DNA of 64,000 nucleotides from an uncultured Verrucomicrobiota bacterium (GCA_964411985.1 CAYPNF010000005.1:108974-172973); one strand, 5' to 3'. Positions 913 to 39,120 are shown, numbered from the stretch's first letter. Notes: generated from the sequence alone by a model not told the origin. Program-made: numbers and translations.

Positions 913-1764
913 TCATGGCCTCAAGTGCTGACGAAACTCCGTCGGACTCATGTGAGTGTGGTGGCGGAAGAAGTAACTGAACTGGAACTCATTGGAAAAG
1001 TTCAATTGCGCCGCGACATCCTTGATTCGAAGTCGCTCATCGGTGAGGAGCAACCGCGCCTGGTCGAGCCGGACACGGTGGATGTTCTCATGGAGGGTCC
1101 CTTGGCCCGACTTCCGAAACATGGCGCGTAGAACCGAATAGCTGACTTTGGCCAGAGCGGCAAGTTCCTTGGCCCGCCAATCGCGGAGCGGATTGGCGGC
1201 GATGGCGTTGAGCACCCTCACGACGGGGGCAGGTAGTTCCTTGTGAGGTGAGATCAGCAAACCGCGGGACATCAGGAGTTTTCCCAGCATGCTGGTGATG
1301 AGCATGTGCACTTGCCACTCCCAGCCCGTGGGTGTTCGCCGCACCATCCGCAAGAGTTCCTTGTACGTTTGCTTCACGAAACCAAAATCGTCCAGGGCGA
1401 ACTCCGTGTTCTCGATGAGCCGAATCTCCTCGTGCCAGACTTCCAAGGCGGGACCACCAAAGCGGAATCCAGTGAACGTGAGTTGGCCCCGAGTCGATGG
1501 AAGGTAGGTGCGGGGTTTGCCCATATCTACCAACCAGACTTTTCGCCCGGTGGTGAGCGCGAAGTGCCCTGTTTCATGTTCGAGAATACCCTGGCCCGAC
1601 TGGACCCAGAAGAGGTGCGCCCCCGGCTTTTCGAAGGATGTGTGATGATCTGGTTCCACGATCCGCCGCGTTCCAATGGAGAACAAATGCCAGAGCAGGC
1701 GACGGGCGATCGGGGAGGGGTCCACAAAGACGAGTTTGTTGGATGGGGTCAATGACTTTGGCAT
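913..1764 (-). CDS. AraC-family transcriptional regulator (N-terminal cupin-like sensor + C-terminal HTH); longest ORF would extend to 1839
   Basis: The C-terminal region LAALAKVSYSVLRAMFRKSGQGTLHENIHRVRLDQARLLLTDERLRIKDVAAQLNFSNEFQFSYFFRHHTHMSPTEFR is a typical AraC double HTH. Start chosen at the internal Met (MPKSLTP). It is divergent to the large surface protein gene. Confidence 0.75.
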   Translation of the reverse strand: MPKSLTPSNKLVFVDPSPIARRLLWHLFSIGTRRIVEPDHHTSFEKPGAHLFWVQSGQGILEHETGHFALTTGRKVWLVDMGKPRTYLPSTRGQLTFTGFRFGGPALEVWHEEIRLIENTEFALDDFGFVKQTYKELLRMVRRTPTGWEWQVHMLITSMLGKLLMSRGLLISPHKELPAPVVRVLNAIAANPLRDWRAKELAALAKVSYSVLRAMFRKSGQGTLHENIHRVRLDQARLLLTDERLRIKDVAAQLNFSNEFQFSYFFRHHTHMSPTEFRQHLRP

Positions 1765-1939
1765 AGACCCGTGTTTAGCAGATTCGGAAGCAGGGTGTCT
1801 ACCGTAACCGCAAAAGGCACGGCATTGAGCAGTTTTCATATGGACTGTGCCAGATACAGTATGGACGACAAATCAGGAGGAACGCATGCTGGATTCACTG
1901 AATGACACCCGTGACCCGAATCCCCGAGTTCTTCCAACC

Positions 1940-4900: not shown

Positions 4901-5668
4901 GGTTTGGCTGCCAACCAAACCTACTACTTCCGTTTGAGAAGCAGCAATTCGGCAGGCACTTCCGCATGGTCGGGTGTGGGCTCCGCTACCACCCCTGACT
5001 GGGGTATCAATGTCAACTTTGCGAGCAGCGAATTCAAGACGGGCGAGCCGGGCTACCCCATCCCCGGGTATCGGGACGACTATGGTGACGTTTTTGGGGA
5101 TCGCGGCAACGGGCAGTCGTATGGTTGGCTTGAGGATAACACCGCGACCACCCGTGTTCGCCGTGCGAGCAATTCGCCAGATCCACGCTACGATACGCTC
5201 ATACACCTTCAGCGGAATGGCGATTTCGTTTGGGAGATGGCTCTCCCCAACGGCTCCTACCAGGTGCGCGTGGTGGCAGGTGATCCTGGAGCTACCGACA
5301 GCATGTTCCAGTTTGATCTGGAGGGCCAGATCACGGATGCCCTGAAGCCTTCCGCAGTCGGAAACGCATACTGGGTTGAGTTCAAAAAGTCCTGCACGGT
5401 ATCCGACGGGAGGCTTACCGTCCGCAGCGGGTCCCAGGCAACCAACAACAAGATCTGTTTCATAGACATCCTTCGAGCATTTGCTGAACCGCCGGCGATC
5501 AAGTCCGTATCGCTAAGCGGCGGCAATGTCAGCATCCAGTGGACTGGCGGCGGCACGCTGCAGGCGGCTCCCAGCATCGAGTCTGTGGCGTGGGTGGATG
5601 TTGCCACCGGAGGGACGTGGACGGAACCTGCCACCGGCGGCGCAAGATTCTACCGAGTGCGACGGTAG
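1940..5668 (+). CDS. Giant secreted surface/adhesin-like protein: duplicated ~280-aa beta-helix-like module, three dystroglycan/cadherin-like Ig domains, FN3 and a malectin/CBM-like C-terminal region
   Basis: Signal peptide at the internal Met (MKRPTLAFAVGAFLALCSTSGIAAV); the ORF tool start is 1847. Two homologous blocks (VEDWNGLVNPHEADGVTLTGTGAPGDPAVYTIPSGL... and TEVWDGVQNPHAAEGVALTGTGTAEDPAVYTIPNGL...). Three repeats of the type DPDNNTLTFARGMGPAWLSVAPDGSLSGTP (cadherin-like/He_PIG). An FN3-like stretch (YYFRLRSSNSAGTSAWS). Confidence 0.7.
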   Translation: MKRPTLAFAVGAFLALCSTSGIAAVPVVVSTVEDWNGLVNPHEADGVTLTGTGAPGDPAVYTIPSGLTITAGGGIRLTSNLDDAGDSANITFVLEKGDLQIEEGGFLETCLGNRGDNREFVLDLGGGSVKGAGRIVGLRAEGPRNRKPRGVTIQNVVNVSLKEIDLHVEDISSEVPGALKIVATGRVHIPGKVDISDIDTGGNPVNDIRIDAESIEIGSLDTRSLRPAGRRSGSIFLRALSAEGGFDPAAGGNTISNRVTLNGPIRTDGLGDGGNVTVQGVVLQVGGNFGLATARGSAVTLNAGVDTLGTPKNDLFIDSAGANIAPLVKYAVQWNGIAAAGSAPAFSTDPMTRAKAVPDAPYTATLAGSATDPDNNTLTFARGMGPAWLSVAPDGSLSGTPTAGDAGMNSWTISVSDGTRVDIAQLRIGVSGRPTFLTHPVLKPNGAQNQPYADTLADTAADPDGDPVTFAKLDGPAWLSVAANGALSGTPPSTATSTNQWTVTVSDATGSDSAQLVIVVGGVPRWLSDPVIKPVARSGLAYAGSGQTLALDAIDPDGGPVQFEKVSGPSWLQVASGGALSGTPSDADVGVQSWTVRASDGTGDSVATLKIEVFAKNATIEISRTEVWDGVQNPHAAEGVALTGTGTAEDPAVYTIPNGLRFTPSGAIQMTSQGGPDNHIKFVVSGGNIEMASGSVINLGRLKREDLSTCLLDLGGGSILGSGQILGLLLSDDSPRQLTIENAKDISLSSIDLHVVNANNGNRNLTITASGVVTIPAIDIGDRDSGGNQVGSVIVKADSIMVGSIDVRSMRTGSYRGNGNIELTALGAPAYDPAAAAGNDFANQIVVTGRLRSRGPEVPPSPGTDGNITLQGVAVHLDSSVGPEVPEGSTVTVSAGVIRSGTVAGDLFSDLSGTVTAQHTVEWSGGVSVPSAPTLLGVESFAATALRITWSTADLLATEFLVEQSTDGAVFTQAAALPGGVRRCEIGGLAANQTYYFRLRSSNSAGTSAWSGVGSATTPDWGINVNFASSEFKTGEPGYPIPGYRDDYGDVFGDRGNGQSYGWLEDNTATTRVRRASNSPDPRYDTLIHLQRNGDFVWEMALPNGSYQVRVVAGDPGATDSMFQFDLEGQITDALKPSAVGNAYWVEFKKSCTVSDGRLTVRSGSQATNNKICFIDILRAFAEPPAIKSVSLSGGNVSIQWTGGGTLQAAPSIESVAWVDVATGGTWTEPATGGARFYRVRR

Positions 5669-5710: not shown

Positions 5711-5803
5711 GGCCCTGCCTGCGTGCCGTCCGCTTGAGGCGCTCGAGACTTGCGCCTATTTAGAAAGCGATCGCTTATGGACCATTCTTTCCCATTTCCT
5801 GGC

Positions 5804-6625
5804 ATGCGCCCGCCTTTCGGGACAACTCTCCGACACCACCGCACCGGTCCGCATGGAACCCTTCATCGATGCTACGGCTTTACCTTGATAGAGCTGCTTG
5901 TCGTGATTGCGATCATCGCCATTCTTGCTGGCATGCTTCTGCCGGCGCTGAGCAAGGCCAAAGGTAAAGGCCAACGCACCGCTTGCCTCAACAACATGCG
6001 CCAAGTTGGGCTGGCCTTGGCCATGTATGTCGATGATAATCACGGCGGCATGCCTCCGATAACCCGTGCTTTGTTTGATTTCGCCAGCCAGACAGCGCCT
6101 GACAATTTCCTGAAGGCGCTGCTGCCCTACGTTGGGAGTTCGACAGGCACGAACCGTGCCACCCCTGTCTATGCCTGCCCAACCCTCAAACCCTCTCCAC
6201 TGCCTGCATACAAACCGACGAAGGCGAGCGATTCCGGCTTACTCGCCAATGCCCTGGTCCTGCAACGAAAGGTCGAACAGGTTGCCAATCCGAGTCTCGT
6301 GATTGTACTCCAGGAAAACTGGTGCCGTTGGAATTACCTGCTCAACCAGCCGGAAGGTAGCGACCAAGGGGGGTATACCCAATGGCACACTTGGACGGCA
6401 ACAACAGACACCTCGACTGGGTGGAGTGGAACCGCCCGCGAGCACTTTTCCAACGTGCATGAGCAGGGAGGAAACCTGGTCCACGTGGACGGTCATGCGG
6501 GCTACCGAAAGTATCGGAGTCTGACCAGCGGTGACTTTGGCCTAGTGGACCCATCTACCAAACGGAGCGATGCCTACCAGCCGACGGAGGCACATTCCCG
6601 CAAAACCTATGCGCCAGCCTTCTAG
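5804..6625 (+). CDS. Prepilin-type N-terminal cleavage/methylation protein with C-terminal H-X9-DG motif (DUF1559-type pseudopilin-like protein)
   Basis: G|[28 protein letters not shown] is the class III signal with cleavage site and a Glu at +5. The C-terminus carries [12 protein letters not shown] (H-X9-DG). Start set at the Met giving a 25-aa basic leader; the ORF tool start is 5750. Confidence 0.75.
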
Positions 6626-6696: not shown

Positions 6697-7293
6697 ATGT
6701 CAATGCATGGTAGAGTGGACGATCTCGTCAAGCTTGTGCACCCAACAAGTCGCCTTCGACGGGGACTGGACCTGCTGATGAGCTTTCAAGCCGGTTGCCT
6801 GCCCGATGTGTCCGCGCGCCTTTGCAGTTTGCGGCCAGGAGAATCCTGCCGTTTCGATCTGGAGGGGGGTGCCTTCTACCTGCTCTGCCAGTGCTACTTT
6901 CCAAAGCAGCGAGAGGAGGGACGGTTCGAAGCGCATGCACGCCACACGGACCTGCACTTTCTCTGGAGTGGCCGGGAATGCATCGAGGTGGACGACCTGC
7001 GAAGTCGAAATGTGCCGGCGGATTACGATAAGAATGGCGATGTGCGTTTCCCCATGGAGGACAACTCCTCTTCCCGGCTCGTGCTGGGCCCGGGACAGGT
7101 GGCGGTCCTTACGCCGGAAGATGCCCATGCCCCATGCCTGCGGCCGGCATTCGGGGGTGGGGAGGTGGTGCTGAAAATAGTGGTGAAGATCCAGGATGCC
7201 CATCTGGCCGAGCTTGAGTCCGCACGCCACGACGGGCTCGATGGACAGGTTGATTCCCGAAAGAGCTTGAGTGGCCTTAACCCCGTAGTATAG
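6697..7293 (+). CDS. YhcH/YjgK/YiaL (DUF386) family protein, the sialic-acid-catabolism-associated cupin-like enzyme family
   Basis: Recalled similarity to E. coli YhcH: HARHTDLHFLWSGRECIEV resembles HARYLDIQIVLKGQE; GQVAVLTPEDAHAPCL resembles GDFVVFYPGEVHKPLC; the C-terminal VLKIVVKI matches. Length ~198 aa. Confidence 0.6.
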   Translation: MSMHGRVDDLVKLVHPTSRLRRGLDLLMSFQAGCLPDVSARLCSLRPGESCRFDLEGGAFYLLCQCYFPKQREEGRFEAHARHTDLHFLWSGRECIEVDDLRSRNVPADYDKNGDVRFPMEDNSSSRLVLGPGQVAVLTPEDAHAPCLRPAFGGGEVVLKIVVKIQDAHLAELESARHDGLDGQVDSRKSLSGLNPVV

Positions 7294-7302
7294 AGTGTTA
7301 CC

Positions 7303-8874
7303 ATGGAGAACTGGCGCTGGTTGGATGGGATCATTGTTGTTTTGTATTTTGTGTTGGTGGCGTGGGTCGGGTTTCGATTCTCGCGGCGGCAGACTTCCAC
7401 CGAAACCTACTTTGCGGCGGGGCGCTCTATTCCGCACTGGGCGATGGGGGTTTCGATGTTCGCCACTCTCATCAGCAGCATCACCTTTATCGCTTATCCC
7501 GGTTCGTCCTATGCGGGGAATTGGAGTGAGCTGGTCCCTGGCTTCATGGTCATCGGTGTGCTCGTGCTGGTGGGAACGGTCTTGGTGCCGTTTTTTCGAC
7601 AAGCCGTCGGTTTGAGTGCTTACGAGTACTTTGGACAGCGCTTCGGCTACGGGGCGCGGGCCTACAGCGGACTCGCGTTCAGCGCCGGGCACTTCTCCAA
7701 AATGGGTTTCGTGCTCTACTTGCTGTCGCTCACCGCGAGCAGCATGACGGGTTGGAACATCTACCTTGTGCTGCTGATCACCGGCGTGGTGACGGTGCTT
7801 TACACCGTGTTCGGCGGGCTGGAGGCGGTGATCTGGACCGACGTGGTGCAAGGCCTTATCATGTGTCTCGGCGTCCTGGTGATTCTGGGTTTTCTCGTCT
7901 ACCTCATGCCGGGCGGCATCGGCGCGGCGTTCGCCCTGGCCAGTGAAAAGGGCAAGTTCAGCCTCGGCAATTCGCAGTGGAATTTTGCCGACAAGACCAG
8001 CCTGTGGGTGATGTCGCTCTATGGGTTCTTCTGGTATCTGCAAAAATACTCCGCTGACCAGACGATTGTGCAGCGTTACCTGGTGGCGAAGTCCGACCGC
8101 GAAGCCCTCAAAGGCGTGGCGCTCGGGGCGTTGATGTGCCTACCCATCTGGACGCTCTTCATGCTCATTGGCACGCTCGTGTGGTGCTATTACCAGCTTT
8201 CCGGCACCGCCTTCCCGCCCGAACTGATGGACAAGGCTGGGAAGGTGATTTCCGACAAAGTGTTCCCGCACTTCCTCGTGACCAGAATCCCGGTGGGTTT
8301 ATCCGGCTTGTTCATGGCGGCGGTCTTTGCGGCAGGAATGTCCACGCTGTCCTCGGATCTCAACTGCCTCTCCGCGGTTGGGGTGGAAGATTATTTCCGC
8401 AAGCTCCGCCCGAATGCCTCTGATGGGCGACGGTTGTTCATGGGCAAGTTGATAGTGGGCGTCTGCGGCGGCGCGGCGGTGGGCATCGCGGCGCTCATTG
8501 CGTGGAAAAGCGAGCGGGTATTGTCACTTTATTACGCCGTGTCTTCCATCATTTCCGGCGGGCTCGCGGGCATGTTCATCCTCGCCTTCCTGAGCCGGCG
8601 TGCCAACAAGGAGGGTCTTTGGGTGGGTATCGTTACCAGCCTGGTCTTCACTGCCTGGGCCACGCTCACGAGCGGGAAGAACAAGATGTTCGATCTCGGC
8701 GATTACAATTTCCCCTGGGCGGGCGTGATGATCGGAGTCGGCGCGCACTTGATCGTGCTGGTTGTCGGCTGGATCGCCAGCTACGGTTTTCCCGCGCCAG
8801 CAGAAGCCACCCGCAGCATGACGCTCTGGGGTTGGCTCGAAAAGCGCAAGACCTTGCCGCCGCACCTAACATGA
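7303..8874 (+). CDS. Sodium:solute symporter (SSS family, SiaT/PutP-like)
   Basis: 523 aa with ~13 hydrophobic helices. The N-terminus WLDGIIVVLYFVLVAWVGFRFSRRQTSTETYFAAGRSIPHWAMGVSMFATLISSITFIAYPG is the SSS signature region. Its stop overlaps the next start (ATGA at 8871-8874). Confidence 0.85.
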   Translation: MENWRWLDGIIVVLYFVLVAWVGFRFSRRQTSTETYFAAGRSIPHWAMGVSMFATLISSITFIAYPGSSYAGNWSELVPGFMVIGVLVLVGTVLVPFFRQAVGLSAYEYFGQRFGYGARAYSGLAFSAGHFSKMGFVLYLLSLTASSMTGWNIYLVLLITGVVTVLYTVFGGLEAVIWTDVVQGLIMCLGVLVILGFLVYLMPGGIGAAFALASEKGKFSLGNSQWNFADKTSLWVMSLYGFFWYLQKYSADQTIVQRYLVAKSDREALKGVALGALMCLPIWTLFMLIGTLVWCYYQLSGTAFPPELMDKAGKVISDKVFPHFLVTRIPVGLSGLFMAAVFAAGMSTLSSDLNCLSAVGVEDYFRKLRPNASDGRRLFMGKLIVGVCGGAAVGIAALIAWKSERVLSLYYAVSSIISGGLAGMFILAFLSRRANKEGLWVGIVTSLVFTAWATLTSGKNKMFDLGDYNFPWAGVMIGVGAHLIVLVVGWIASYGFPAPAEATRSMTLWGWLEKRKTLPPHLT

Positions 8875-10016
8875 ACATTGTTACCTTGTTGCAACCGCCG
8901 CGCATCGTTGTCGGCGACGGCTGCGCACCCCAATGCGCCGAGTGTTTTCCTCAGCTTGGAGTGAAGCGCGTTCTGCTTGTGTCCAGCACGCCCGTGCTGC
9001 CGACGTTGACGGGTGTGCTGGAGGCGCTGACGCAGGCCGGCGTTGCCATCGTTCGATCCCTGACGATTGATCGTGAACCGACCCGCGAGATGTTTGAGCA
9101 AGCTCTTGCTGTCGCGCGAAAAGAGAACATCGAAGCTGTCCTCGGCATTGGGGGCGGGAGCGCGATGGACGTCGCCAAACTCGTCGCAGCTCTCACGCAC
9201 GGAAAGCAACACGTTTCGGAAGTGTTCGGCATCGATCTGCTCGCCAACCGCGCGCTGCCGCTTGTCTGTCTGCCGACCACCTCTGGCACCGGCGCCGAAG
9301 TCTCGCCCAACGCGATTCTCCTCGATGAAGCCAACGAATTGAAAAAGGGCGTCGTCAGCCGCTATCTTGTGCCGGACGCGGTGTTCATCGATCCGCGGCT
9401 CACGCTCACCGTTCCGCCCGCCGTCACGGCGGCAACCGGACTCGACGCGCTCACGCACTGCATCGAAGCCTATGCCAACAAGTTCGCGCACCCGGTGGTG
9501 GACGTTTATGCGCTGCAAGGCATTCGGCTCATTGCCGCCAATCTGGAGCTTGCGGTTCGTGATGGCCAGAACCTGGAGGCCCGCAGCGCGCTGGCGCTGG
9601 GCAGTTTCTACGGCGGGCTTTGCCTCGGCCCAGTGAACACCGGGGCCGTGCACGCGCTCTCGTACCCGCTCGGTGGGCGTTTTCATATTGCTCACGGTGT
9701 TGCCAACTCACTGCTATTGCCGCATGTCATCCGCTTCAACGCGCCGGCCGCACTACAGCGTTATGGGGAAGTCGCGCTGGCGCTGGGCGTTCAACCCGGC
9801 ACGAACCCCGCCGATACCGCCGAGCGCGGTGTGGATTTCCTGGCGCGACTTTCCCGCAACTGCGGAGTGCCGCAGACACTCTCGGAACTCAAGATCCCGC
9901 GGGACGCCATCCCGTCCCTCGCCAGAGCGGCGCTGCAGGTGACCCGCTTATTAAAGAACAATCTTCGCACGGTAACCGAGGCTGACGCGGCTGCAATTTA
10001 TGAGACTGCATACTGA
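8871..10016 (+). CDS. Iron-containing (group III) alcohol dehydrogenase, FucO/lactaldehyde-reductase-like
   Basis: Start taken at MNIVTLLQPPRIVVGDGC, which overlaps the symporter stop. GGGSAMDVAKL is the Fe-ADH NAD-binding motif. His residues of the metal site are present (HALSYPLGGRFHIAHG). ORF tool start 8502 rejected because it overlaps the transporter. Confidence 0.8.
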   Translation: MNIVTLLQPPRIVVGDGCAPQCAECFPQLGVKRVLLVSSTPVLPTLTGVLEALTQAGVAIVRSLTIDREPTREMFEQALAVARKENIEAVLGIGGGSAMDVAKLVAALTHGKQHVSEVFGIDLLANRALPLVCLPTTSGTGAEVSPNAILLDEANELKKGVVSRYLVPDAVFIDPRLTLTVPPAVTAATGLDALTHCIEAYANKFAHPVVDVYALQGIRLIAANLELAVRDGQNLEARSALALGSFYGGLCLGPVNTGAVHALSYPLGGRFHIAHGVANSLLLPHVIRFNAPAALQRYGEVALALGVQPGTNPADTAERGVDFLARLSRNCGVPQTLSELKIPRDAIPSLARAALQVTRLLKNNLRTVTEADAAAIYETAY

Positions 10017-10017
10017 A

Positions 10018-10926
10018 ATGATCCAACCGACCAAGTTCGGTGGCGCCGTCGTGCCGATCGTTACGCCTACCACCTCCGATGGGCAACTTGATTTCGCAGC
10101 GCTCGATCGGCTAATCGAATCTCAGATTAGGGGCGGGGTGGAAGGCTTGCTGATCTTGGGAACAACCGGCGAAGGTCCCTGTATCCCGCGGATGTTGCGC
10201 CTTCCGCTCCTGGAGCGGGCCGTGGCTGCCGGCGGCAAACGCCTTCTCATTTATGCGAATGTCGCAGAAAATGCTCTCGCCGACACCCTCACGAGTGCCA
10301 AGGAGTTCATGTCGGCGGGGGCGGACGCGATCGCTGTGCTGCCACCCTTCTATTTTTCGTCAAGTCCGGTGGAGTTGGCCGCCTGGTTTCACGCTTTGCT
10401 CGACGCTGCGCCCGGGCCGGTGGTCCTGTACAACATCCCGCTCACCACGCGTGTCTCCATTCCGCTGGAGGTCATCGGTGAATTGGTCGGCCACCCAAAC
10501 CTGGTCGGCCTGAAGGATTCTGAAAACGATCCCAAGCGCCATGAGGAATTGCTCCGGCGCTTTGGGGGACGGTCGGATTTTTCCATCTTCATCGGGGTCG
10601 GCGCGCTCATGGCGCAAGGGTTGAAGTCAGGGGCGGACGGCATTGTGCCCAGCGTGGGCAATCTGATCCCCCGGGACTGCCAGCAACAAGTCGAAGCCGC
10701 GCGCGCCGGGGACTGGGGGGCGGTGGATGCCATCGCCGCACGACAGGCCGAAATCGCGGCTGTGTATCAAAAGGGCCGCACCCTCACCCAATCGCTCGCC
10801 GCGCTGAAAGGACTGCTCCATCACCGGGGCATCTGCTCCCCGTACGTATTTCCGCCGTTGTTGCCGATGTCGGCGGCTGAACTCGATGGGTTGCGCGGCG
10901 AACTGGCAAAACTGAAGCTACCATGA
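10018..10926 (+). CDS. DapA/NanA-family class I aldolase (dihydrodipicolinate synthase / N-acetylneuraminate lyase family)
   Basis: GTTGEGPCI motif and YNIPLTTRVSIP; candidate Schiff-base Lys in VGLKDSEND. ~303 aa. ATG immediately after the ADH stop; an alternative start at 10000 would overlap by 17 nt. Confidence 0.75.
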   Translation: MIQPTKFGGAVVPIVTPTTSDGQLDFAALDRLIESQIRGGVEGLLILGTTGEGPCIPRMLRLPLLERAVAAGGKRLLIYANVAENALADTLTSAKEFMSAGADAIAVLPPFYFSSSPVELAAWFHALLDAAPGPVVLYNIPLTTRVSIPLEVIGELVGHPNLVGLKDSENDPKRHEELLRRFGGRSDFSIFIGVGALMAQGLKSGADGIVPSVGNLIPRDCQQQVEAARAGDWGAVDAIAARQAEIAAVYQKGRTLTQSLAALKGLLHHRGICSPYVFPPLLPMSAAELDGLRGELAKLKLP

Positions 10927-11942
10927 AACCCCGACCGATTCTCGGACTCACGATGGGCGATCCTGCGGGGATTGGTCCGGAAATCTGCCTCCGCGCACTG
11001 AGCGAGCCGTCCGTGCTGGCCGAGTGCGTGCCGGTGCTGTTCGGGGATGCTGGCGCACTGCGGCTCCTGGCAGAAAAGGGTCTTTCCGCGAGTGTCGCGC
11101 CGGTTGTGTCGCTTGCGGAATTCACTTCGTCTGCCGCGCCGACGACTCCCATCGTGGTGGATTGCTCCACGCTGGACGTAGGCAAGATTGAACCCGGCAA
11201 AGTGTCCGCCGCCTGCGGTCAGGCGGCTTACATCTTCATCGAACAGTCGATTCGAGCCGCTCTCGCGAAGCGGATTGACGGCGTCGTCACCGGGCCGGTT
11301 CACAAGGAGGCTTTGCATCTTGCCGGGGTGGAATTTCCCGGGCACACGGAGATTTTCACCGAGCTCACCGGTGCGAAGCGCAGTTGCATGATGCTCTACT
11401 CCGAGAAAATCGCGGTCAGTATGGTCACCACGCACATCGGCTATCACGAAGTGCCGGGCACACTCTCCGTTGAGAGGGTTTGGAACACCATCGACCTCAC
11501 CGCCGAGGCGATGCGTTGGATGTTGCATCGCGCGCCCCGCATCGGGGTGTGTGGGTTGAACCCGCACGCGGGTGAACACGGTTTGTTCGGCCAGGGGGAG
11601 GAGGAGAAGTACGTTGTGCCCGCCGTCGCCGAGGCAAAGAAGCGGGGTTTGGATGTCACCGGGCCGCTGGTGCCGGACGCGGCGTTCACCACTAGCCTTC
11701 GCCAGAAGTTCGACGCTTTCATCTGTCTCTATCATGACCAGGGCCACATCCCTTTCAAAATGCTGGCGTTCGACACGGGGGTGAATATTACGCTCGGACT
11801 GCCCATCATTCGCACCTCGGTGGATCACGGCACGGCTTTCGACATTGCCTGGCAGGGCAAAGCTGACCCGACTAGTCTGTACTCCGCCGTCCACATCGCC
11901 GCCCAACTCGCAACGGGGCGCTTCAGGAGTGCAGCTCCATAA
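10923..11942 (+). CDS. PdxA-family NAD-dependent dehydrogenase (4-hydroxythreonine-4-phosphate dehydrogenase-like / PdxA2-like)
   Basis: Motifs HTEIFTELTG, TTHIGYHEV and LNPHAGEHGLFG. Start overlaps the previous stop (ATGA). Confidence 0.8.
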   Translation: MKPRPILGLTMGDPAGIGPEICLRALSEPSVLAECVPVLFGDAGALRLLAEKGLSASVAPVVSLAEFTSSAAPTTPIVVDCSTLDVGKIEPGKVSAACGQAAYIFIEQSIRAALAKRIDGVVTGPVHKEALHLAGVEFPGHTEIFTELTGAKRSCMMLYSEKIAVSMVTTHIGYHEVPGTLSVERVWNTIDLTAEAMRWMLHRAPRIGVCGLNPHAGEHGLFGQGEEEKYVVPAVAEAKKRGLDVTGPLVPDAAFTTSLRQKFDAFICLYHDQGHIPFKMLAFDTGVNITLGLPIIRTSVDHGTAFDIAWQGKADPTSLYSAVHIAAQLATGRFRSAAP

Positions 11943-11965
11943 GCCAACGCAAACGCGAGCAGTCC

Positions 11966-13225
11966 ATGAGCAGCATCCTCACGATCCGTAAATACACATT
12001 GGGTGTGGGCGATCGCTTTGCGCAGCAAGCCGTTGCGCAAATTCAAGCTTGCGTCATGGCAGCGCAACAGGGTGTGGAAATCTGTCCCACGTGGAACAAA
12101 TCCAATCGCGAACACGACATCATTGGCTCCGAGCCGGCGAGCGTGCGGGCAGCGGCCGACGCGGCGGTGAAGGCCGCCGGATGGATGAAGCCGTACTACG
12201 TGGATGCTGATCACATCGGGCTCAGGACGGTGGATCGTTTCATGGCGGTTTCCGACTTTTTCACCATTGATGTCGCGGACTATATCGGCAAGTCCGCCGA
12301 AACCAGCGCGGGGAGGGCTTTCGTTGAGCGCCATCCCGAACTGATGGGCAGGGTTTCTATCGCGGGGATCGATTGCCCCTTTGATGTTACGCGCGCCGAA
12401 GTGGAGCGCATCGCGGGCAAGTATTTGCACGCCGTGCAGGAAGCCAGCAAGGTGTATCAATACATCTCGTCGAAGAAGAACGGCGCGTCTTTTGTCACGG
12501 AAGTGTCGATGGACGAAACCGATTCTCCGCAGACGCCGCTGGAGCTACTCTGCATCCTTGCGGCGATGGCCGAAGAGAAGATTCCAATTCAGACCATCGC
12601 GCCGAAGTTCACTGGCCGGTTCAACAAGGGCGTGGATTACGTGGGTGACGTGGCGCAGTTCGAGAAGGAAGTCAACGACGACCTGTGTGTCATTTCACAC
12701 GCCATCCAACGCTACGGCCTGCCGGAAACGCTCAAGCTCAGCGTGCACTCAGGCAGCGATAAGTTCTCGATCTATCCGGCCATCAACCGTGCTTTGAAGA
12801 AGCACGGCTGCGGGGTCCACGTGAAGACGGCAGGTACGACTTGGCTGGAGGAAGTCATCGGGCTCGCCGAGCACGGCGGGGAGGGGTTGAAGCTGGCGAA
12901 GGAAATCTACGCCGGGGCACTGGCGTGCATAGACGAACTTAGCGTACCCTATGCCAGCGTACTTGACATCAAACGCCCGAACCTCCCGACGGCGGAAGAG
13001 GTGAGCAGATGGACGAGTGAACAGTATGTCAGAGCCTTGCGCCACGACCAGATGGACCCTCTGTTCAACGAGAGCCTCCGCCAGTTGCTGCACGTGGGCT
13101 ATAAGGTCGCCGCGAAGATGGGGCCGCGGTATCTTATGCTGCTCGAGGAATGTGAAACCTCGGTGGCACGCAACGTGACGAGTAATCTGTTTGACCGCCA
13201 CATCAAACCCTTGTTTTTGTCTTAA
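11966..13225 (+). CDS. Conserved putative sugar-acid enzyme, possibly UxaE-like (tagaturonate/fructuronate epimerase family); function uncertain
   Basis: 419-aa soluble protein in the operon. Motifs such as SVHSGSDKFS and HVKTAGTTWLE; the UxaE assignment rests on recalled similarity only. Confidence 0.5.
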   Translation: MSSILTIRKYTLGVGDRFAQQAVAQIQACVMAAQQGVEICPTWNKSNREHDIIGSEPASVRAAADAAVKAAGWMKPYYVDADHIGLRTVDRFMAVSDFFTIDVADYIGKSAETSAGRAFVERHPELMGRVSIAGIDCPFDVTRAEVERIAGKYLHAVQEASKVYQYISSKKNGASFVTEVSMDETDSPQTPLELLCILAAMAEEKIPIQTIAPKFTGRFNKGVDYVGDVAQFEKEVNDDLCVISHAIQRYGLPETLKLSVHSGSDKFSIYPAINRALKKHGCGVHVKTAGTTWLEEVIGLAEHGGEGLKLAKEIYAGALACIDELSVPYASVLDIKRPNLPTAEEVSRWTSEQYVRALRHDQMDPLFNESLRQLLHVGYKVAAKMGPRYLMLLEECETSVARNVTSNLFDRHIKPLFLS

Positions 13226-13236: not shown

Positions 13237-16035
13237 ATGTTGTTTCATAACATTACCTTCGTTACGGCCGTAGCCACCATCATCATGGCCCACGCCTTCG
13301 CTCATGCGGCAAGCGATTCGAGAACAAACTCTCTCGGCATGATGATGATTCCAGTGAAATCGGGGAGCTTCGTCATGGGCTCCACGACGATAGATGAACA
13401 TTGGAATGAGCGCCCGGCGCATCGGGTGACGATCAGCCACGGCTTCCTCATGTCGGAGACTGAAGTGACGCTGGCACAGTATCAGCAGTTTCGCCCCGGG
13501 TTTGAGGGCACTCCGGGCTGTGATCCTTACGTGGCCGGGGTCAGTTGGCTGGATGCCACGGCCTTTTGCGAGTGGCTGAGCCACAAGGAAGGAAAGCCTT
13601 ATCGGCTGCCGACCGAGGCCGAGTGGGAATTTGCCTGCCGAGCAGGCACGGTGACTCCGTTTCACACAGGCGCTCAACCGACGGCGCTCGAGACTGCCAA
13701 CGCCTGGGGATTCAAGAACATGCACACCGGCGTGCGAGAATGGTGTTTTGACCGCTACGGCGAATACCCCATCGAGGCGCAGATTGACCCGGCCGGAGCG
13801 GATCAAGGAATTACGCGCGTAGTTCGCGGCGGGGGCATGGACGAGAACCAACCTGAATACGCCCGCTCAACCGCGCGCGGCTCGATGGGTGAGGCTTTTG
13901 GCGCTTATGCGCCGGGAATAGTGGAGGGAAAGCGACTGAGCTTGGCGGAGACTTTCTTTCCAGGTATGGTGGGCCGCTTTTTTGGCGAAGCAAACCTTAC
14001 CCGGCCGCATGACAAGTTCCTGATCCACAAACTCGACCTTAGCAAGAAGGATGGTGAGTTCGACAAGGGTAGCCAGTGGTCCGGCCGCTTTCTCGGTTTC
14101 TTAGAGGCGCCGGTTACCGGCTCGGTCGCTTTCGAAGGGATTGCCGACGACGGCATGGAAGTCCTCGTGGAGGGCAAGAAGATCATTAGCGCCTGGAACC
14201 AGAAGAACACACCCGTGGCCGGCACAGTGGACATGGTGAAAGGCCGCAAGTACGAGGTCGAAATCACGTTCACCCAGAACGGAGGCGATGCGTTCATGCG
14301 CCTTTATTGGAGCTGGCTCGGGCAGGACAAGCAAATCGTTCCGTCGTCGGCGATGTCCTACAGCGGTCTTCAGGAAATGAAAGTTGTGGCCATGGGCACC
14401 GGTGCAACCTCTGAAGTCCCCGGCCATCACCTGATCGGTTTCCGCGTGGTCCAAGGGGCTCCGGCGAAGCGCTTTCTGCGCACCGATGGTCCTTACGCTC
14501 GTCAAGGCGTACGGCAGGATACTAGCATGGCCAAGCAGGGGCCGGATCCGGCCAAGCCCTACTTCCGCAAACGCTCCATGATGCCGACCCCGCTCGAAAA
14601 CAGTGACCGTAAAGTCATCGACTTTGCGGGTCTGCATGCTTCGTTCCGCGACCACAACCACAGCCCGGCACTGGAGGTGTTGCCCAACGGTGACGTGCTG
14701 CTTGTGATCTATACATCCTATCACGAATATGAACCAGGCGTGTCACTAATCGCGGCACGGTTACGCTTCGGCACCGAGGAATGGGATATGCCAAGCCCGT
14801 GGTTGGATTTCGCCCTGGTGAACGACCACGCTCCACTTTTGTGGGTTGAAAGCGGAATCCTGCGGCTCTTCTGGGGCAATCCACGGCTCGCTTCTGCGTT
14901 CCCCTTCCAATGGGTGGAATCCACCGACAACGGAGGGACGCTTGGGCCGGTGTGCTTCCCGAGATTCACGAGCCGCATTGGCCCTCATTCCAAGCAACCC
15001 ATCAACACCGCTTTCCGGGGTTTGGACGGCACGATGTATGTTGCGAGCGACGCCGCGGGAGCTTCCTCTGTTTTGTGGGCGAGCGGCGATAACGGCAAGA
15101 CCTGGTACGACACCGGGGGGCGAAGCGCAGGTCGCCATACCACTTATGCAGTGCTCAAGGATGGTTCGATTCTGGGCATGGGAGGCAAGAACAGCGACAT
15201 TCAGGGCTACATGCCCAAGGTTGTTTCCAAAGACGGCGGTAAGACGTGGGAGAAGAGCAAGACCCCCTTTGCGGCACAGTCCTCCAACCAGCGGCCGAGC
15301 CTGCTCCGCCTCACCAGCGGGCGACTGTTCTTCGCAGGCGACTACCAAGATCGGGAAGGAAAGCAGCCTGATGGCATCAAGGATCGGGGCTCCTATGTCG
15401 CCCTCTCGGACGACGATGGTCAAACCTGGAGGATCAAGCCCTTACTAGGCGCGCAGCCGCACGAGGATGGCAAACTGGCCTCGGCGACCATTGGGTATTC
15501 GGCTGCGCGGCAGGCACCCAACGGCGTCATCCACCTGATCACGACGATGAACCGTCCTAATCTGCACTTCGAAATGAACGAGGCATGGATCCTAGATCCG
15601 AACAGCACACGCGAAGACCCGGTGGCTCCGACCTCCAGCGGTCCACTGATCAATGTCAGTAAGCATACGGAGAAGTATCCTACCGGGCAGACAAGGCTAA
15701 CTTGGAGCGCGGGTAGAGCCTCTGATGGCCGATGCCTTTTGGAGGGTGCTGAGATCTGGTACCATGACAACGGCCGAAAGCAGCGCGAGGCCAAGTACAA
15801 GAAGGGCTTCAAGACAGGAAAGGAGACGTACTGGTCGCGCGACGGCAGGGTCGAATGGACTTGGGATCACCGGCCTGACGGCAGCGCGGTCTGGACACAA
15901 TTCTGGTCCAACGGCCAGAAGAAGGCTGTATCAACCTGGCGGAGTTTCATGTGCGATGGCACGGCGACCTGCTGGGATCCGTCCGGCAAGCAGATCAGCC
16001 AAGTGGAGTTTTCCCGAGGTAGGATCAGGAAATGA
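13237..16035 (+). CDS. Secreted multi-domain protein: formylglycine-generating-enzyme (SUMF1/FGE-sulfatase) domain + PA14 + BNR/Asp-box sialidase-like beta-propeller + C-terminal MORN/YwqK-like repeats
   Basis: N-terminal signal peptide. FGE-like region RLPTEAEWEFACRAGTVTPFHTG...WGFKNMHTGVREW. PA14 region GSVAFEGIADDGMEVLVEGKKIISAW...FMRLYWS. Asp-boxes SGDNGKTW, SKDGGKTW, SDDDGQTW. Repeats WYHDNGRKQREAKYKKG / YWSRDGRVEWTW. Confidence 0.75.
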   Translation: MLFHNITFVTAVATIIMAHAFAHAASDSRTNSLGMMMIPVKSGSFVMGSTTIDEHWNERPAHRVTISHGFLMSETEVTLAQYQQFRPGFEGTPGCDPYVAGVSWLDATAFCEWLSHKEGKPYRLPTEAEWEFACRAGTVTPFHTGAQPTALETANAWGFKNMHTGVREWCFDRYGEYPIEAQIDPAGADQGITRVVRGGGMDENQPEYARSTARGSMGEAFGAYAPGIVEGKRLSLAETFFPGMVGRFFGEANLTRPHDKFLIHKLDLSKKDGEFDKGSQWSGRFLGFLEAPVTGSVAFEGIADDGMEVLVEGKKIISAWNQKNTPVAGTVDMVKGRKYEVEITFTQNGGDAFMRLYWSWLGQDKQIVPSSAMSYSGLQEMKVVAMGTGATSEVPGHHLIGFRVVQGAPAKRFLRTDGPYARQGVRQDTSMAKQGPDPAKPYFRKRSMMPTPLENSDRKVIDFAGLHASFRDHNHSPALEVLPNGDVLLVIYTSYHEYEPGVSLIAARLRFGTEEWDMPSPWLDFALVNDHAPLLWVESGILRLFWGNPRLASAFPFQWVESTDNGGTLGPVCFPRFTSRIGPHSKQPINTAFRGLDGTMYVASDAAGASSVLWASGDNGKTWYDTGGRSAGRHTTYAVLKDGSILGMGGKNSDIQGYMPKVVSKDGGKTWEKSKTPFAAQSSNQRPSLLRLTSGRLFFAGDYQDREGKQPDGIKDRGSYVALSDDDGQTWRIKPLLGAQPHEDGKLASATIGYSAARQAPNGVIHLITTMNRPNLHFEMNEAWILDPNSTREDPVAPTSSGPLINVSKHTEKYPTGQTRLTWSAGRASDGRCLLEGAEIWYHDNGRKQREAKYKKGFKTGKETYWSRDGRVEWTWDHRPDGSAVWTQFWSNGQKKAVSTWRSFMCDGTATCWDPSGKQISQVEFSRGRIRK

Positions 16036-20249: not shown

Positions 20250-20269
20250 CACAAAGGAGTAGCGCATCT

Positions 20270-39058: not shown

Positions 39059-39120
39059 GGCGCTCCATTCTGACCGCAAGACCGACTCCCCGAACTGGGA
39101 GTCGGTCTTGGTAAAGGAAT

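Follow-up and report, generated by a model that had tools for sequence, protein, structure and literature searches.

Which acid sugar is taken up and broken down by a run of tightly packed genes on the DNA of an uncultured Verrucomicrobiota bacterium? The window analysed here, a stretch of 64,000 nucleotides, had been read as carrying a non-canonical operon of the sialic or ulosonic acid type, in which a YhcH-family protein, a sodium/solute symporter and a DapA/NanA-family lyase are joined by an Fe-alcohol dehydrogenase (Fe-ADH), a PdxA-like dehydrogenase and a putative epimerase. We consider import and breakdown of DHA the most likely role of the cluster in this Verrucomicrobia-type bacterium (probability roughly 0.6), a specificity that we infer solely from pathway logic and from the neighbouring genes. 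DHA is a rare seven-carbon 2-keto-3-deoxy dicarboxylic sugar of side chain D of rhamnogalacturonan-II (RG-II), in plant pectin. We found no publication describing a route for its catabolism.

Layout of the gene cluster

All six predicted open reading frames lie on the plus strand at 6697-13225, and ORF calls, Pfam assignments and direct reading of the sequence confirmed their coordinates (Table 1). ATGA overlaps are legible at 8871-8874 and 10923-10926, and the remaining intergenic gaps measure 9, 23 and 11 nt. Orthologues of the DapA-like gene begin at its second ATG (10018), 1 nt past the stop of the Fe-ADH gene. The AraC-family gene adjoining the cluster is kept in relatives, and in those of Verrucomicrobia type (loci L081, L082, L165 and L166) the He_PIG/Big_9 protein comes first in the plus-strand run and the N-methyl/DUF1559 gene is syntenic.

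Table 1. Features of the window, with positions counted from its first nucleotide
Feature	Position	Strand	Assignment
AraC-family regulator	913..1839	-	Pfam HTH_18/HTH_AraC; divergent from the plus-strand run
Large He_PIG/Big_9 Ig-domain protein	1847..5668	+	Pfam
Prepilin-type N-methyl/DUF1559 protein	5750..6625	+	Pfam N_methyl and SBP_bac_10
DUF386/YhcH-family protein	6697..7293	+	PF04074 78.9 bits
Na+/solute symporter (SSS)	7303..8874	+	PF00474 (SSF) 148 bits; TIGR00813
Group-III Fe alcohol dehydrogenase	8871..10016	+	Pfam Fe-ADH 141 bits, ADH_Fe_C 179 bits
DapA/NanA-family class I aldolase	10000..10926, likely true start 10018	+	PF00701 (DHDPS family) 176 bits
PdxA2-type dehydrogenase	10923..11942	+	PF04166 335 bits
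Short-form tagaturonate/fructuronate epimerase UxaE	11966..13225	+	PF16257 183 bits
Secreted multidomain protein with sialidase-fold propeller	13237..16035	+	Pfam
DUF1537 four-carbon acid-sugar kinase remnant, 66 codons	16032..16232	+	tblastn with intact kinases
GH143-like beta-propeller with sialidase-like CBM	16252..18210	+	PF24067 331 bits, PF22585
Bicupin protein	18295..19170	+	Pfam Cupin_2 x2
Truncated third GH143-like gene, propeller only, TTG start inferred	19200..20249	+	PF24067 305 bits
BNR_2 (sialidase-type) propeller, 422 aa	20270..21538	+	Pfam BNR_2 46.5 bits
942-aa protein between propeller genes	21542..24370	+	
Second full-length GH143-like protein	24480..26321	+	PF24067 96 bits, PF22585 95 bits

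A conserved gene set that includes a DUF1537 kinase

We took loci as orthologous from 46% identity of the DapA-like gene upwards, counted neighbours where the flanking sequence was long enough, and used more distant DapA paralogues as a comparison set. A DUF1537 kinase flanks the DapA-like gene in 24 of 25 orthologous loci versus 4 of 16 distant paralogues; an Fe-ADH is its neighbour in 25/31 versus 2/21, a PdxA gene in 25/30 versus 5/22 and an SSS gene in 20/24 versus 6/15. In locus L099 the aldolase and kinase are still paired though Fe-ADH and PdxA are not adjacent. That the neighbours recur in orthologous loci indicates that the arrangement is no chance juxtaposition. The core conserved in about 25 related loci comprises a SiaT-like symporter, Fe-ADH, DapA-family aldolase, PdxA2-type dehydrogenase and DUF1537 kinase, while the DUF386 gene was seen only in Verrucomicrobia-type loci. 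The kinase had been foretold from pathway chemistry and was afterwards found in the related loci. It is this kinase, and not the epimerase of the original prediction, that forms the sixth enzyme of the conserved set, and it survives in the window as a remnant.

Predicted uptake and cleavage proteins

The solved structure closest to the symporter is 5NV9 (236 bits; runner-up 144 bits), which we take to be the sialic acid symporter SiaT; here the protein would act as the DHA importer. The YhcH-like protein does belong to DUF386, scoring 56.9 bits with TIGR00022 (cut-off 45.5) besides its Pfam match, and reaches 43.9 bits with the NanQ equivalog NF040884 (cut-off 160). It probably assists the keto-acid sugar after import, as an anomerase or by helping to open its ring. 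As anticipated, the lyase falls outside DapA proper (TIGR00674, 140.7 bits, cut-off 206), and it is not NanA either (TIGR00683, 92.6 bits, cut-off 382); it also stays under the KDG-aldolase and KdgD equivalog cut-offs, and its best PDB match gives just 137 bits. It keeps the Schiff-base Lys172, Tyr144 and Thr55/56, carries an invariant Thr149 in place of Arg138 of DapA, and lacks Asp191/Glu192 of NanA, the residues that bind the Neu5Ac tail. Its predicted activity is that of a DHA aldolase.

The locus has in common with the Nan cluster (NanA, SiaT, NanQ/YhcH and sialidase) the uptake, anomerase and class I lyase families and sialidase-fold glycosidases, and in both a 2-keto-3-deoxy acid sugar would be cleaved to pyruvate and an aldehyde. 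Unlike the Nan cluster, the window has no NanK, NanE, NagA or NagB domain in any large ORF scanned, in agreement with the original prediction; its proteins score far under the NanA and NanQ cut-offs, and the predicted downstream enzymes take a C4 acid rather than an N-acetylhexosamine. The lyase scores, the DUF386 assignment, the 5NV9 match and the sialidase-type folds described below support a non-canonical operon for uptake and cleavage of an acidic 2-keto-3-deoxy sugar, distinct from the Nan pathway. A sialic or nonulosonic acid is an unlikely substrate in view of the NanA and NanQ scores and the absent Neu5Ac-binding residues.

A proposed route from DHA to pyruvate and DHAP

In the route that we propose, DHA would be freed from its glycan by the secreted GH143-like and sialidase-fold propellers and taken up by the SiaT-like Na+ symporter, and the DUF386 protein would accelerate its anomer or ring-opening interconversion in the manner of NanQ with sialic acid. 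The DapA-family class I aldolase would cut between C3 and C4 to give pyruvate and D-threuronate (2,3-dihydroxy-4-oxobutanoate), an aldehyde that the Fe-ADH would reduce with NAD(P)H to D-threonate. A DUF1537 kinase would then form 4-phospho-D-threonate, and the PdxA2-type enzyme would oxidatively decarboxylate it to DHAP and CO2. On balance, DHA would yield pyruvate, DHAP and CO2 for one ATP, redox-balanced, with the NADH spent by the ADH regenerated by PdxA2. The D-lyxo configuration places C5 left and C6 right in Fischer projection, so the C4-C7 fragment would be D-threuronate, whose reduction gives D-threonate; the known DtnK/PdxA2 route starts from D-threonate and ends in DHAP plus CO2. 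All seven proposed functions would be covered with no orphan enzyme, which counts for DHA; against it stand the equivalog HMM cut-offs, all of which are missed, and the kinase, of which the window holds only the remnant. The oxidoreductive processing that had been predicted for the cleaved sugar is better understood as one in which no neutral aldose is handled and a C4 aldehyde-acid is reduced, its product then entering the known D-threonate kinase and dehydrogenase reactions.

The Fe-ADH, the putative D-threuronate reductase, lies under the cut-off of all NCBIfam equivalogs (ErcA 301 bits, lactaldehyde reductase 250 bits), and its best PDB matches are 1,3-propanediol oxidoreductase, methanol dehydrogenases and lactaldehyde reductase. 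The PdxA-like protein matches 2HI1 (PdxA2) and 6E85 (D-threonate 4-phosphate dehydrogenase) over its full length with 265-276 bits and 42-43% identity, and true PdxA with a lower 179-188 bits, which suggests that it acts on 4-phospho-D-threonate; with the D-threonate-4-P dehydrogenase equivalog it reaches 300 bits (cut-off 583). For the kinases associated with the loci, the best NCBIfam model is D-threonate kinase, DtnK (126-148 bits, under its cut-off of 450), and 3-oxo-tetronate kinase gives 83-108 bits.

A D-threonate module of DtnK, a DUF1537 kinase, and PdxA2 was described by Zhang et al. (2016, PNAS), according to passages in PMC10971088 and PMC9997740. The orthologous loci resemble it in having both families side by side, in a PdxA-like protein nearest to PdxA2 and 6E85, in kinases that score best on the DtnK model and in the predicted end product. 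They differ in that D-threonate would not be imported but would arise intracellularly, through the aldolase and Fe-ADH, from a C7 ulosaric acid, in scores that stay below the equivalog cut-offs and, in the window, in the deleted kinase. The E. coli D-glucarate/galactarate pathway (GarL aldolase, GarR tartronate-semialdehyde reductase and GarK glycerate kinase) follows a like order, from a 2-keto-3-deoxy-aldaric acid to pyruvate and an aldehyde-acid, which becomes a hydroxy-acid and is phosphorylated. Its substrate is C6, whereas the one proposed here is C7; its aldolase is class II HpcH-type rather than class I DapA-type, a beta-hydroxyacid dehydrogenase stands where the Fe-ADH does and a glycerate kinase where DUF1537 does, and the proposed route would need an extra oxidative decarboxylation to reach DHAP.

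The kinase gene of the window

The kinase remnant, missing from the earlier gene list, emerged from tblastn with intact kinases, whose residues 1-15 match 16032-16076 and residues ~328-382 match 16065-16229 (57-64% identity, E as low as 3e-14); the same search found no further DUF1537 gene in the window. Both pieces share one frame, the ATGA of the remnant overlaps the stop of the upstream gene, and ~950 nt are absent relative to L081/L082. From these alignments, the gene is the remnant of an in-frame internal deletion. Unless another part of the genome supplies a kinase, the local pathway would go no further than D-threonate. In the related contig L166 the kinase also occurs as a stub and a GH143-like gene as a fragment, and an intact kinase lies 5 kb downstream of the stub, making a displaced kinase elsewhere in the source genome plausible.

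Secreted propellers and the RG-II context

The sialidase-like propellers predicted downstream do have sialidase-type folds (Foldseek), but they are not one group: the genes at 16252-18210, 19200-20249 (truncated) and 24480-26321 are GH143-like, while GH33-fold/BNR_2 propellers make up the C-terminal half of 13237-16035 and the protein of 20270-21538. We know of no family other than GH143 with a known DHA hydrolase (BT1020). The 16252-18210 protein, a candidate DHA hydrolase, matches residues 21-611 of BT1020 (PDB 5MQR_A) with E 8.8e-136. It is the N-terminal domain of BT1020 that constitutes the GH143 DHA hydrolase (PMC13501991). The window protein shares its Pfam propeller and CBM with BT1020, which in the RG-II PUL of B. 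thetaiotaomicron combines this hydrolase with a GH142 beta-L-arabinofuranosidase; unlike BT1020, the window proteins have no GH142 half, come in several copies and are linked to cytoplasmic catabolic genes, an association for which we found no counterpart described for B. thetaiotaomicron. The second full-length GH143-like protein is 34% identical to the first over its full length, and the truncated one aligns with residues 9-338 of the first at 53% identity before a short tail; a minus-strand ORF at 19209-20267 is a shadow of the truncated gene. Bicupin homologues adjoin GH143-like genes in L082 and L130. The 942-aa protein has no match in Pfam, NCBIfam or PDB sequences.

The 13237-16035 protein combines FGE-sulfatase-like, PA14, sialidase-fold (GH33-like) beta-propeller and MORN-repeat domains. 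Foldseek searches of the PDB with an AlphaFold model of its residues 422-932 (pLDDT 86.8) gave sialidases and KDNases as best matches (1EUR, E 1.7e-14, TM 0.72); this propeller has no profile-level relation to GH143, and the protein is a candidate exo-ulosonidase. The 20270-21538 propeller has weak PDB sialidase matches and is syntenic in L082 and L130.

A sialidase-fold propeller homologue adjoins the cluster in 13 of 19 loci. In L082 three GH143-like genes lie directly 3' of the kinase, and most orthologous loci have a GH33-fold propeller and GH78, not GH143. The same pairing occurs in B. thetaiotaomicron BT1013, which works on the Rha-Kdo side chain (PMC13501991), so the glycosidase context fits Kdo as well as DHA. 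Other loci carry the RG-II enzyme families GH2, GH78, GH141 and DUF3826, and also genes of the apiose type, for an isomerase, an FGGY kinase and a split transketolase. In the distant variant L130, DapA-like, SSS and GH143-like genes are linked to GFO/IDH/MocA oxidoreductases and a sulfatase, without PdxA or kinase; given this variant, GH143-like enzymes may act on further glycans too.

Alternative readings

Were the substrate another ulosonic acid, such as Kdo from RG-II chain C or LPS, KDN or a sialic/nonulosonic acid, cleavage would give pyruvate and a neutral aldose, for instance D-arabinose from Kdo, and side reactions would be the task of the Fe-ADH, the PdxA-like protein and the kinase. 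The SiaT-like symporter, DUF386 protein and DapA/NanA-family lyase do form a sialic-type signature, the most conserved neighbouring glycosidase has the GH33 sialidase/KDNase fold, GH78 rhamnosidase is often nearby, as in the Rha-Kdo enzyme BT1013, and the adjoining Fucose_iso_C isomerase and FGGY kinase could in principle accept D-arabinose. We nevertheless think it unlikely: a neutral aldose leaves the three tightest-linked enzymes, above all the kinase, without a substrate, the NanA and NanQ scores, the missing tail-binding residues and the missing Nan enzymes point the same way, and the isomerase and kinase are accompanied by a split transketolase and an ABC system, presumably an apiose-type arrangement. 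Rather doubtful, too, is the reading in which the substrate, instead of DHA, is a 2-keto-3-deoxy dicarboxylic or related acid sugar that has yet to be described, for example of algal, bacterial or sulfated glycans, with the enzymes converting it to a C4 acid in the same manner. It would suit the FGE-sulfatase-like domain on the propeller protein, the sulfatase and different oxidoreductases of L130, the several locus proteins without a known family, and the host lineages, Verrucomicrobiota and Planctomycetota being known degraders of unusual glycans; DHA, however, yields exactly D-threonate and is to our knowledge the sole natural C7 2-keto-3-deoxy-aldaric acid, the GH143-like protein closely matches the characterised DHA hydrolase, and RG-II-type enzyme families dominate the neighbourhoods.

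It is very improbable that the PdxA-like and DUF1537 pair represents ApnO (D-apionate oxidoisomerase) and OiaK (3-oxo-isoapionate kinase) of the oxidative D-apiose pathway, with aldolase and ADH belonging elsewhere. D-apiose is another RG-II sugar, apiose genes lie nearby, and the PdxA and DUF1537 families reportedly include ApnO and OiaK (work said to be that of Carter et al. in 2018). For D-apionate, gene pairs of ApnO and OiaK have been described (PMC12994016). Yet no RuBisCO-like decarboxylase/transcarboxylase, lactonase or apiose dehydrogenase occurs among 73 neighbouring ORFs of 16 loci or in the window, the PdxA-like protein resembles PdxA2 and D-threonate-4-P dehydrogenase over its full length, the kinases match the DtnK model best, and the tight aldolase-kinase pairing would be left unexplained. 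Decay of the locus, or deletions that are assembly artefacts, such that no pathway operates from the window, would account for the 66-codon kinase, the truncated third GH143-like gene and the stub and fragment in L166. This is improbable, since the other genes are full length, 75-95% identical to orthologues (SSS 94.6% over 521 aa, Fe-ADH 88% over 381 aa, for example) and without frameshifts, and L166 keeps an intact kinase; it also concerns the state of this locus rather than the function of the operon type, for which DHA catabolism remains our preferred reading.

The UxaE-like gene

The ~420-aa epimerase had been cast as a replacement enzyme of the pathway, a role that its distribution does not bear out. 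Its homologues in 80 loci of other genomes never stand beside the other five operon genes; their neighbours are UxaC (23), GH28 (16), SDR (14), Lar_N-like (12), PfkB (7) and pectinesterase (6) genes. The gene is absent from L082, L165, L166 and all metagenome loci. By these comparisons it is a genuine galacturonate-pathway epimerase, present in this operon only in this lineage, and we propose that it is a lineage-specific addition serving galacturonate, a backbone sugar of RG-II/pectin. Like UxaE of the Thermotoga/Cohnella type, the protein belongs to PF16257 and matches PDB 6IL9 (E 4.7e-28), and the family adjoins UxaC, GH28 and pectinesterase genes in other genomes. The window gene differs in lying inside a DHA-type operon, apart from UxaC, and in encoding a short form of 419 aa, from which ~80 N-terminal residues of the solved enzymes (~490 aa) are missing, a form very strongly conserved across phyla (62-79% identity).

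Gene content of the operon

ORF listing and profile searches recovered the six co-directional genes where the original prediction had placed them, and the two ATGA start/stop overlaps that it had described (8871-8874 and 10923-10926) are legible in the sequence. Between 1847 and 26321, all genes judged real lie on the plus strand with short gaps between them. Site counts from a scan for consensus promoters and terminators equalled the shuffled expectation, so the transcription unit is not delimited by that scan. The longest open reading frame of the DapA-like gene starts at 10000, and all its orthologues begin at the equivalent of its seventh codon, ATG 10018, which lies 1 nt past the Fe-ADH stop. 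The exact 308-aa product of the longer frame has no record in the gene-call collection, suggesting that annotators took the later start.

Features of the window in order of position
Feature	Coordinates	Strand	Remark
AraC regulator	913-1839		divergent from the plus-strand gene run
DUF386/YhcH	6697-7293	+	profile search
Sodium:solute symporter (SSS)	7303-8874	+	profile search
Group-III iron alcohol dehydrogenase (Fe-ADH)	8871-10016	+	profile search
DHDPS/NanA-family protein (DapA-like)	10000-10926	+	profile search
PdxA-family protein	10923-11942	+	profile search
UxaE-family protein	11966-13225	+	profile search
932-aa FGE-sulfatase-like/propeller/MORN protein	13237-16035	+
DUF1537 acid-sugar kinase remnant	16032-16232	+	66-codon ORF with in-frame internal deletion; tblastn with intact kinases
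GH143-like protein	16252-18210	+
Third GH143-like gene	19200-20249	+	truncated after ~340 residues (propeller and short tail); TTG start inferred
942-aa protein	21542-24370	+	between propeller genes
Second full-length GH143-like gene	24480-26321	+
GH38-like alpha-mannosidase	33677-37204	+	no conserved link to operon
Glycerate kinase	37919-39079	-	no conserved link to operon
6-phosphogluconate dehydrogenase	39121-40575	-	no conserved link to operon
1489-aa hybrid histidine kinase with PA14 domain	40800-45269	+	no conserved link to operon
Region of lower G+C	45270-47960
tRNA-Leu(CAG)	46098-46182
124-aa type IV pilin-like gene	47186-47560	-
VWA, BatA, DUF58, NHL-repeat and solute-binding protein genes	52367-63981	-

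The cluster had been read as a non-canonical operon for a sialic or other ulosonic acid, an interpretation that is partly supported. The YhcH-like protein does fall inside DUF386 (78.9 bits) and passes TIGR00022 (56.9 bits, cut-off 45.5); against the NanQ equivalog NF040884 it scores 43.9 bits, where the cut-off is 160, so that we place it in the family without calling it an orthologue of NanQ. The symporter's nearest solved structure is 5NV9 (236 bits; runner-up 144 bits), which we take to be the Proteus mirabilis sialic-acid symporter SiaT. By profile and PDB comparison, the Fe-ADH resembles small hydroxy-aldehyde reductases, namely 1,3-propanediol oxidoreductase and lactaldehyde reductase. 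The absence of NanK, NanE, NagA and NagB also held, as the scanned large ORFs of the window contain no ROK, NanE, amidohydrolase or glucosamine-6-phosphate isomerase domain.

The DapA-like lyase matches PF00701 at 176 bits. Its Lys172 (Schiff base), Tyr144 (catalytic) and Thr55/Thr56 (GTTGE, of the GxTGE motif) are invariant in the orthogroup, the set of DapA-like proteins at least 46% identical to the window's product, and align with K161/Y133/T44-45 of DapA and K165/Y137 of NanA in manually entered E. coli reference sequences. Judged by these residues, the lyase is a member of the DapA/NanA class I aldolase superfamily that has kept its catalytic machinery. It is not DapA proper, scoring 140.7 bits against TIGR00674 (cut-off 206.15). 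DapA Arg138 (E. coli numbering, likewise a manually entered reference), which binds the aspartate-semialdehyde carboxylate, corresponds to Thr149 in the lyase and throughout the orthogroup. An identity as N-acetylneuraminate lyase is ruled out by the sub-cut-off scores against the NanA equivalogs (TIGR00683, 92.6 bits, cut-off 382; NF003164, 109 bits, cut-off 281) together with the loss of D191/E192, the Neu5Ac-tail-binding positions of E. coli NanA, also entered manually, which are G201/A202 here. Scores against the KDG aldolase equivalog (102.9 bits, cut-off 390) and KdgD (54 bits, cut-off 374) leave the lyase below every equivalog cut-off compared, and its best solved relative reaches only 137 bits.

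A four-carbon acid-sugar kinase accompanies the lyase in related loci

We searched for related loci with the DapA-like protein as query, inspected the contigs of relatives, and scanned metagenome contigs with the orthogroup alignment. Neighbours were counted only where enough sequence flanked the gene, in orthogroup loci and beside more distant DapA paralogues. A DUF1537 kinase (SBD_N and NBD_C) is a neighbour of the DapA-like gene in 24/25 orthogroup loci and 4/16 distant ones. Corresponding counts are 25/31 and 2/21 for Fe-ADH, 25/30 and 5/22 for PdxA, 20/24 and 6/15 for SSS, and 13/19 and 0/14 for the BNR/MORN propeller. The usual gene order is propeller, SSS, Fe-ADH, DapA-like, PdxA, DUF1537, AraC, and at one locus, L099, the DapA-like and DUF1537 genes stand as a lone pair. 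These counts and that pair indicate that the pathway's sixth enzyme is a four-carbon acid-sugar kinase, not an epimerase. The kinase had been expected from the chemistry before any related locus was inspected, and was then found in the relatives.

Intact orthologues of the kinase carry both SBD_N and NBD_C. Their top NCBIfam model is the D-threonate kinase NF047819 (126-148 bits, cut-off 450), and they also stay below the curated cut-off of the 3-oxo-tetronate kinase model, at 83-108 bits. The PdxA-like protein scores 265-276 bits to 4JQP, 2HI1 and 6E85 as against 174-188 bits to true PdxA structures, and is 42-43% identical over its full length to PdxA2 (2HI1) and D-threonate 4-phosphate dehydrogenase (6E85). 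By sequence, then, it is distinctly nearer characterised PdxA2 than PdxA. It clears TIGR00557, a generic model (352.6 bits, cut-off 290), and falls short of the NF002891 equivalog (299.7 bits, cut-off 583). A C4 acid-sugar kinase with a PdxA2-type enzyme makes up the known D-threonate route, which reportedly ends in DHAP and CO2 (Zhang and colleagues, 2016). The kinase of that route has been named DtnK (PMC10971088), and PMC9997740 presents PdxA2 as a paralogue that works in organic-acid catabolism.

A more distant variant, L130 (contig Ga0208462_1000001), combines SSS and a 36% identical DapA-like gene with two GFO/IDH/MocA oxidoreductases, a BNR propeller, a GH143-like gene, a bicupin, a sulfatase and transketolases. 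PdxA, DUF1537 and Fe-ADH genes are absent from this locus, which may stand for another route downstream or for use of another glycan.

An internal deletion has removed the kinase core in the window

In the window, the first 13-15 residues of intact kinases match 16032-16076 and the last ~50 match 16065-16229, all in one frame (tblastn). Residues ~16-327 are thus deleted, and nucleotide alignment with the related loci L081 and L082 places a loss of ~950 nt at this point. The remnant's translation begins MIGVIVNDLTGAA and continues ALARQMGWHRLEV..., with the conserved ADD motif appearing as VND. The start codon shares an ATGA (16032-16035) with the stop of the preceding gene, an overlap that still couples the two in translation.

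The kinase is retained in the nearest relatives. L165 keeps the kinase directly 3' of a 936-aa propeller gene, and L081 keeps it at the same position, after the UxaE insertion. A third relative, L166, has a 36-codon stub (L166:14741-14851) repeating the kinase's first 17 residues at the ancestral site; its full kinase (L166:20004-20909) follows 5 kb further downstream, separated from the stub by inserted GFO_IDH_MocA and HEAT/FG-GAP genes. Rearrangements seem to recur at the 5' end of this kinase gene.

With its core residues deleted, the remnant is ruled out as an intact DtnK with SBD_N and NBD_C. No second DUF1537 gene occurs elsewhere in the window, the glycerate kinase is not linked to the operon, and the UxaE-like protein, a true UxaE homologue, is ruled out as the missing kinase. 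The rest of the pathway is intact, its genes sharing 75-95% identity with their counterparts in L165 and L166. The kinase is possibly encoded elsewhere in this genome, or the organism's route may stop at D-threonate; the deletion could also be a strain variant or an assembly error.

The UxaE-family gene belongs with hexuronate genes elsewhere

The protein encoded next to the PdxA-like gene had been proposed as an epimerase that processes the cleaved sugar. This was not borne out: it is a UxaE homologue, and in a sample of 80 loci from 80 genomes of Verrucomicrobiota, Acidobacteriota, Planctomycetota and other phyla, a YhcH, SSS, Fe-ADH or PdxA homologue lies beside the UxaE gene in none. The protein scores 183 bits against PF16257 (gathering score 27.1), is clearly homologous to solved UxaE structures, and has thousands of homologues at 60-85% identity; the short-form family is 62-79% identical across several phyla (L001-L080, the sampled loci). 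Recurrent neighbours among the 80 are the glucuronate isomerase UxaC (23 loci, usually immediately downstream), GH28 (16), SDR (14), a Lar_N-like protein (12), PfkB kinase (7) and pectinesterase (6). Since these neighbours include hexuronate genes and the homology to solved UxaE is clear, we take the gene to encode a true tagaturonate/fructuronate epimerase serving galacturonate breakdown. Galacturonate being the backbone sugar of pectin, the presence of this gene in the operon is biologically sensible. Other hexuronate genes (UxaC, GH28, KdgK and others) are absent from the window, and among close relatives the UxaE gene occurs only in L081, being absent from L082, L165 and L166.

The Lar_N-like neighbour is ~425 aa long with a weak match to the lactate racemase N-terminal domain (e.g. 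L060:8500-9774, L011:1675-3123), and may be an uncharacterised hexuronate-route enzyme.

Glycosidases suggest an ulosonic sugar, probably of rhamnogalacturonan-II

The protein encoded at 16252-18210 matches PF24067 (331 bits), has the Pfam BT_1020 propeller and sialidase-like CBM, and aligns with residues 21-611 of B. thetaiotaomicron BT1020 (5MQR_A) at E 8.8e-136. BT1020 has as its N-terminal domain the GH143 hydrolase for DHA, the seven-carbon 2-keto-3-deoxy dicarboxylic sugar of side chain D of rhamnogalacturonan-II (RG-II), and DHA-releasing activity on chain D is known only for BT1020 (PMC13501991). The window protein, homologous to this GH143 region, is thus a candidate DHA hydrolase. 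In L082, three GH143-like genes lie directly 3' of the kinase. The truncated GH143-like protein has a signal-peptide-like N-terminus, and the minus-strand ORF at 19209-20267 (352 aa) is its gene's antisense shadow. L166 has a GH143-like fragment (L166:6170-6403) upstream of its DUF386 gene.

The 932-aa protein combines an FGE-sulfatase-like domain, PA14, a propeller and MORN repeats. AlphaFold modelled its C-terminal 511 residues with pLDDT 86.8 and pTM 0.90, and the top Foldseek matches of that model are sialidases and KDNases (probability 1.00, TM up to 0.72); in the model, this half is a six-bladed propeller of the GH33-type sialidase/KDNase fold. A PDB sequence search with the BNR/MORN propeller family gave no matches, and the propeller is not a divergent GH143, having no profile-level relation to it (hhalign probability 13.7%). 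The architecture, sometimes with PA14, defines a large family in Planctomycetota, Verrucomicrobiota and Acidobacteriota. It has at least 1892 homologues (P0243-P0362 among them), typically at 55-65% identity, whose annotation goes no further than 'SUMF1/EgtB/PvdO family'.

Among 73 ORFs neighbouring the module in 16 other loci were Fucose_iso_C isomerase (10), GH2 (9), GH78 rhamnosidase (7), FGGY kinase (6), split transketolase (4) and DUF3826 (3), and L084 has a GH141 in addition. Taken together, the isomerase, kinase and transketolase are reminiscent of the D-apiose pathway of transketolase type. Glycosidase families of the GH2/GH78/GH141 type are those of the B. thetaiotaomicron RG-II system, in which a GH33-fold and GH78 pairing acts on Rha-Kdo (BT1013; PMC13501991). 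The modelled GH33 fold supports an ulosonic-type substrate; glycosidases alone cannot tell DHA from Kdo.

A predicted route from DHA to central metabolism

A pyruvate aldolase and an aldehyde reductase that feed the D-threonate route require a seven-carbon 2-keto-3-deoxy dicarboxylic acid as substrate. The D-lyxo configuration has C4 and C5 to the left and C6 to the right in Fischer projection. Cleavage of DHA between C3 and C4 by the aldolase would yield pyruvate and OHC-C5-C6-COOH of D-threo configuration, that is, D-threuronate. The Fe-ADH would reduce its aldehyde to D-threonate, the exact substrate of DtnK, and the kinase and then the PdxA2-type enzyme would convert this to DHAP and CO2. 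The whole scheme would turn DHA into pyruvate, DHAP and CO2 with every conserved gene used, and NADH spent by the ADH would be regained at PdxA2. In reaction logic (aldolase, semialdehyde reductase, kinase) it is like the E. coli glucarate pathway, but it is one carbon longer and built from unrelated families.

The best explanation of these observations is, at a probability of about 0.58, an operon for DHA catabolism that has gained a UxaE gene in this lineage and lost its kinase by deletion. A Kdo, KDN or sialic-type substrate would suit the GH33-fold propeller as well as the signature of uptake and lyase genes, and would leave the best-conserved partner genes unexplained; here the catabolic enzymes separate the candidates, because the D-arabinose formed from Kdo would offer the kinase and PdxA2 nothing to act on, and we consider this reading improbable. 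A related acid sugar other than DHA is unlikely too, though L130 speaks for it by joining DapA-like, SSS and GH143-like genes to a sulfatase and GFO/IDH/MocA oxidoreductases. We give very little credence to the PdxA-like and DUF1537 pair being ApnO/OiaK of D-apionate catabolism, as the PdxA-like protein resembles PdxA2 enzymes already characterised, the linkage of aldolase and kinase would go unexplained, and the 73 neighbouring ORFs from 16 loci include no RuBisCO-like protein, lactonase or apiose dehydrogenase.

DHA is a signature sugar of RG-II, regarded as the most complex plant glycan, and also occurs in prasinophyte algal scales. Microbial release of RG-II sugars is well studied; to our knowledge, what becomes of the rare acidic ones is not. 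The literature searched, most of it outside subscription journals, contained nothing relevant on DHA or Kdo catabolism. A 2026 RG-II preprint describes pathways in other gut microbes for D-Kdo and other secreted B. thetaiotaomicron products as unconfirmed, and term searches of it turned up no discussion of DHA catabolism.

The enzyme families are all known and the route ends in a known module; the pathway itself is a new prediction, widely distributed and readily testable. We see about even odds that this operon type is the first genetically defined DHA pathway, with a DHA aldolase of the DapA family, a D-threuronate reductase of the Fe-ADH family, a DHA symporter and a DHA anomerase, that it is a D-threonate source for the kinase/PdxA2 module, and that the sialidase-fold propeller/FGE-sulfatase-like/MORN family comprises new ulosonidases. 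If true, those four enzyme activities would be new, and D-threonate, the DtnK/PdxA2 substrate, would gain a physiological origin. Hundreds of proteins annotated 'dihydrodipicolinate synthase family', 'PdxA' or 'iron-containing alcohol dehydrogenase' would acquire specific roles, and a missing step in how Verrucomicrobiota, Acidobacteriota and Planctomycetota of soil and freshwater turn over plant cell-wall carbon would be filled in. The enzymes could also be used to make or detect DHA and C4 acid sugars.

Other features of the window

Sequence searches of Pfam, NCBIfam and the PDB gave no match for the 942-aa protein. L165 encodes an unannotated 1102-aa protein in a similar position, and tblastn detected no homology between the two. 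The tRNA-Leu and pilin-like genes lie in a stretch with G+C of 0.52-0.55, against ~0.59 elsewhere, and no long ORFs. After its DapA-like/kinase pair, L099 has a set (MoxR AAA_3, DUF58, BatA/VWA) similar to the minus-strand gene run at the end of the window, a likeness that is probably coincidental.
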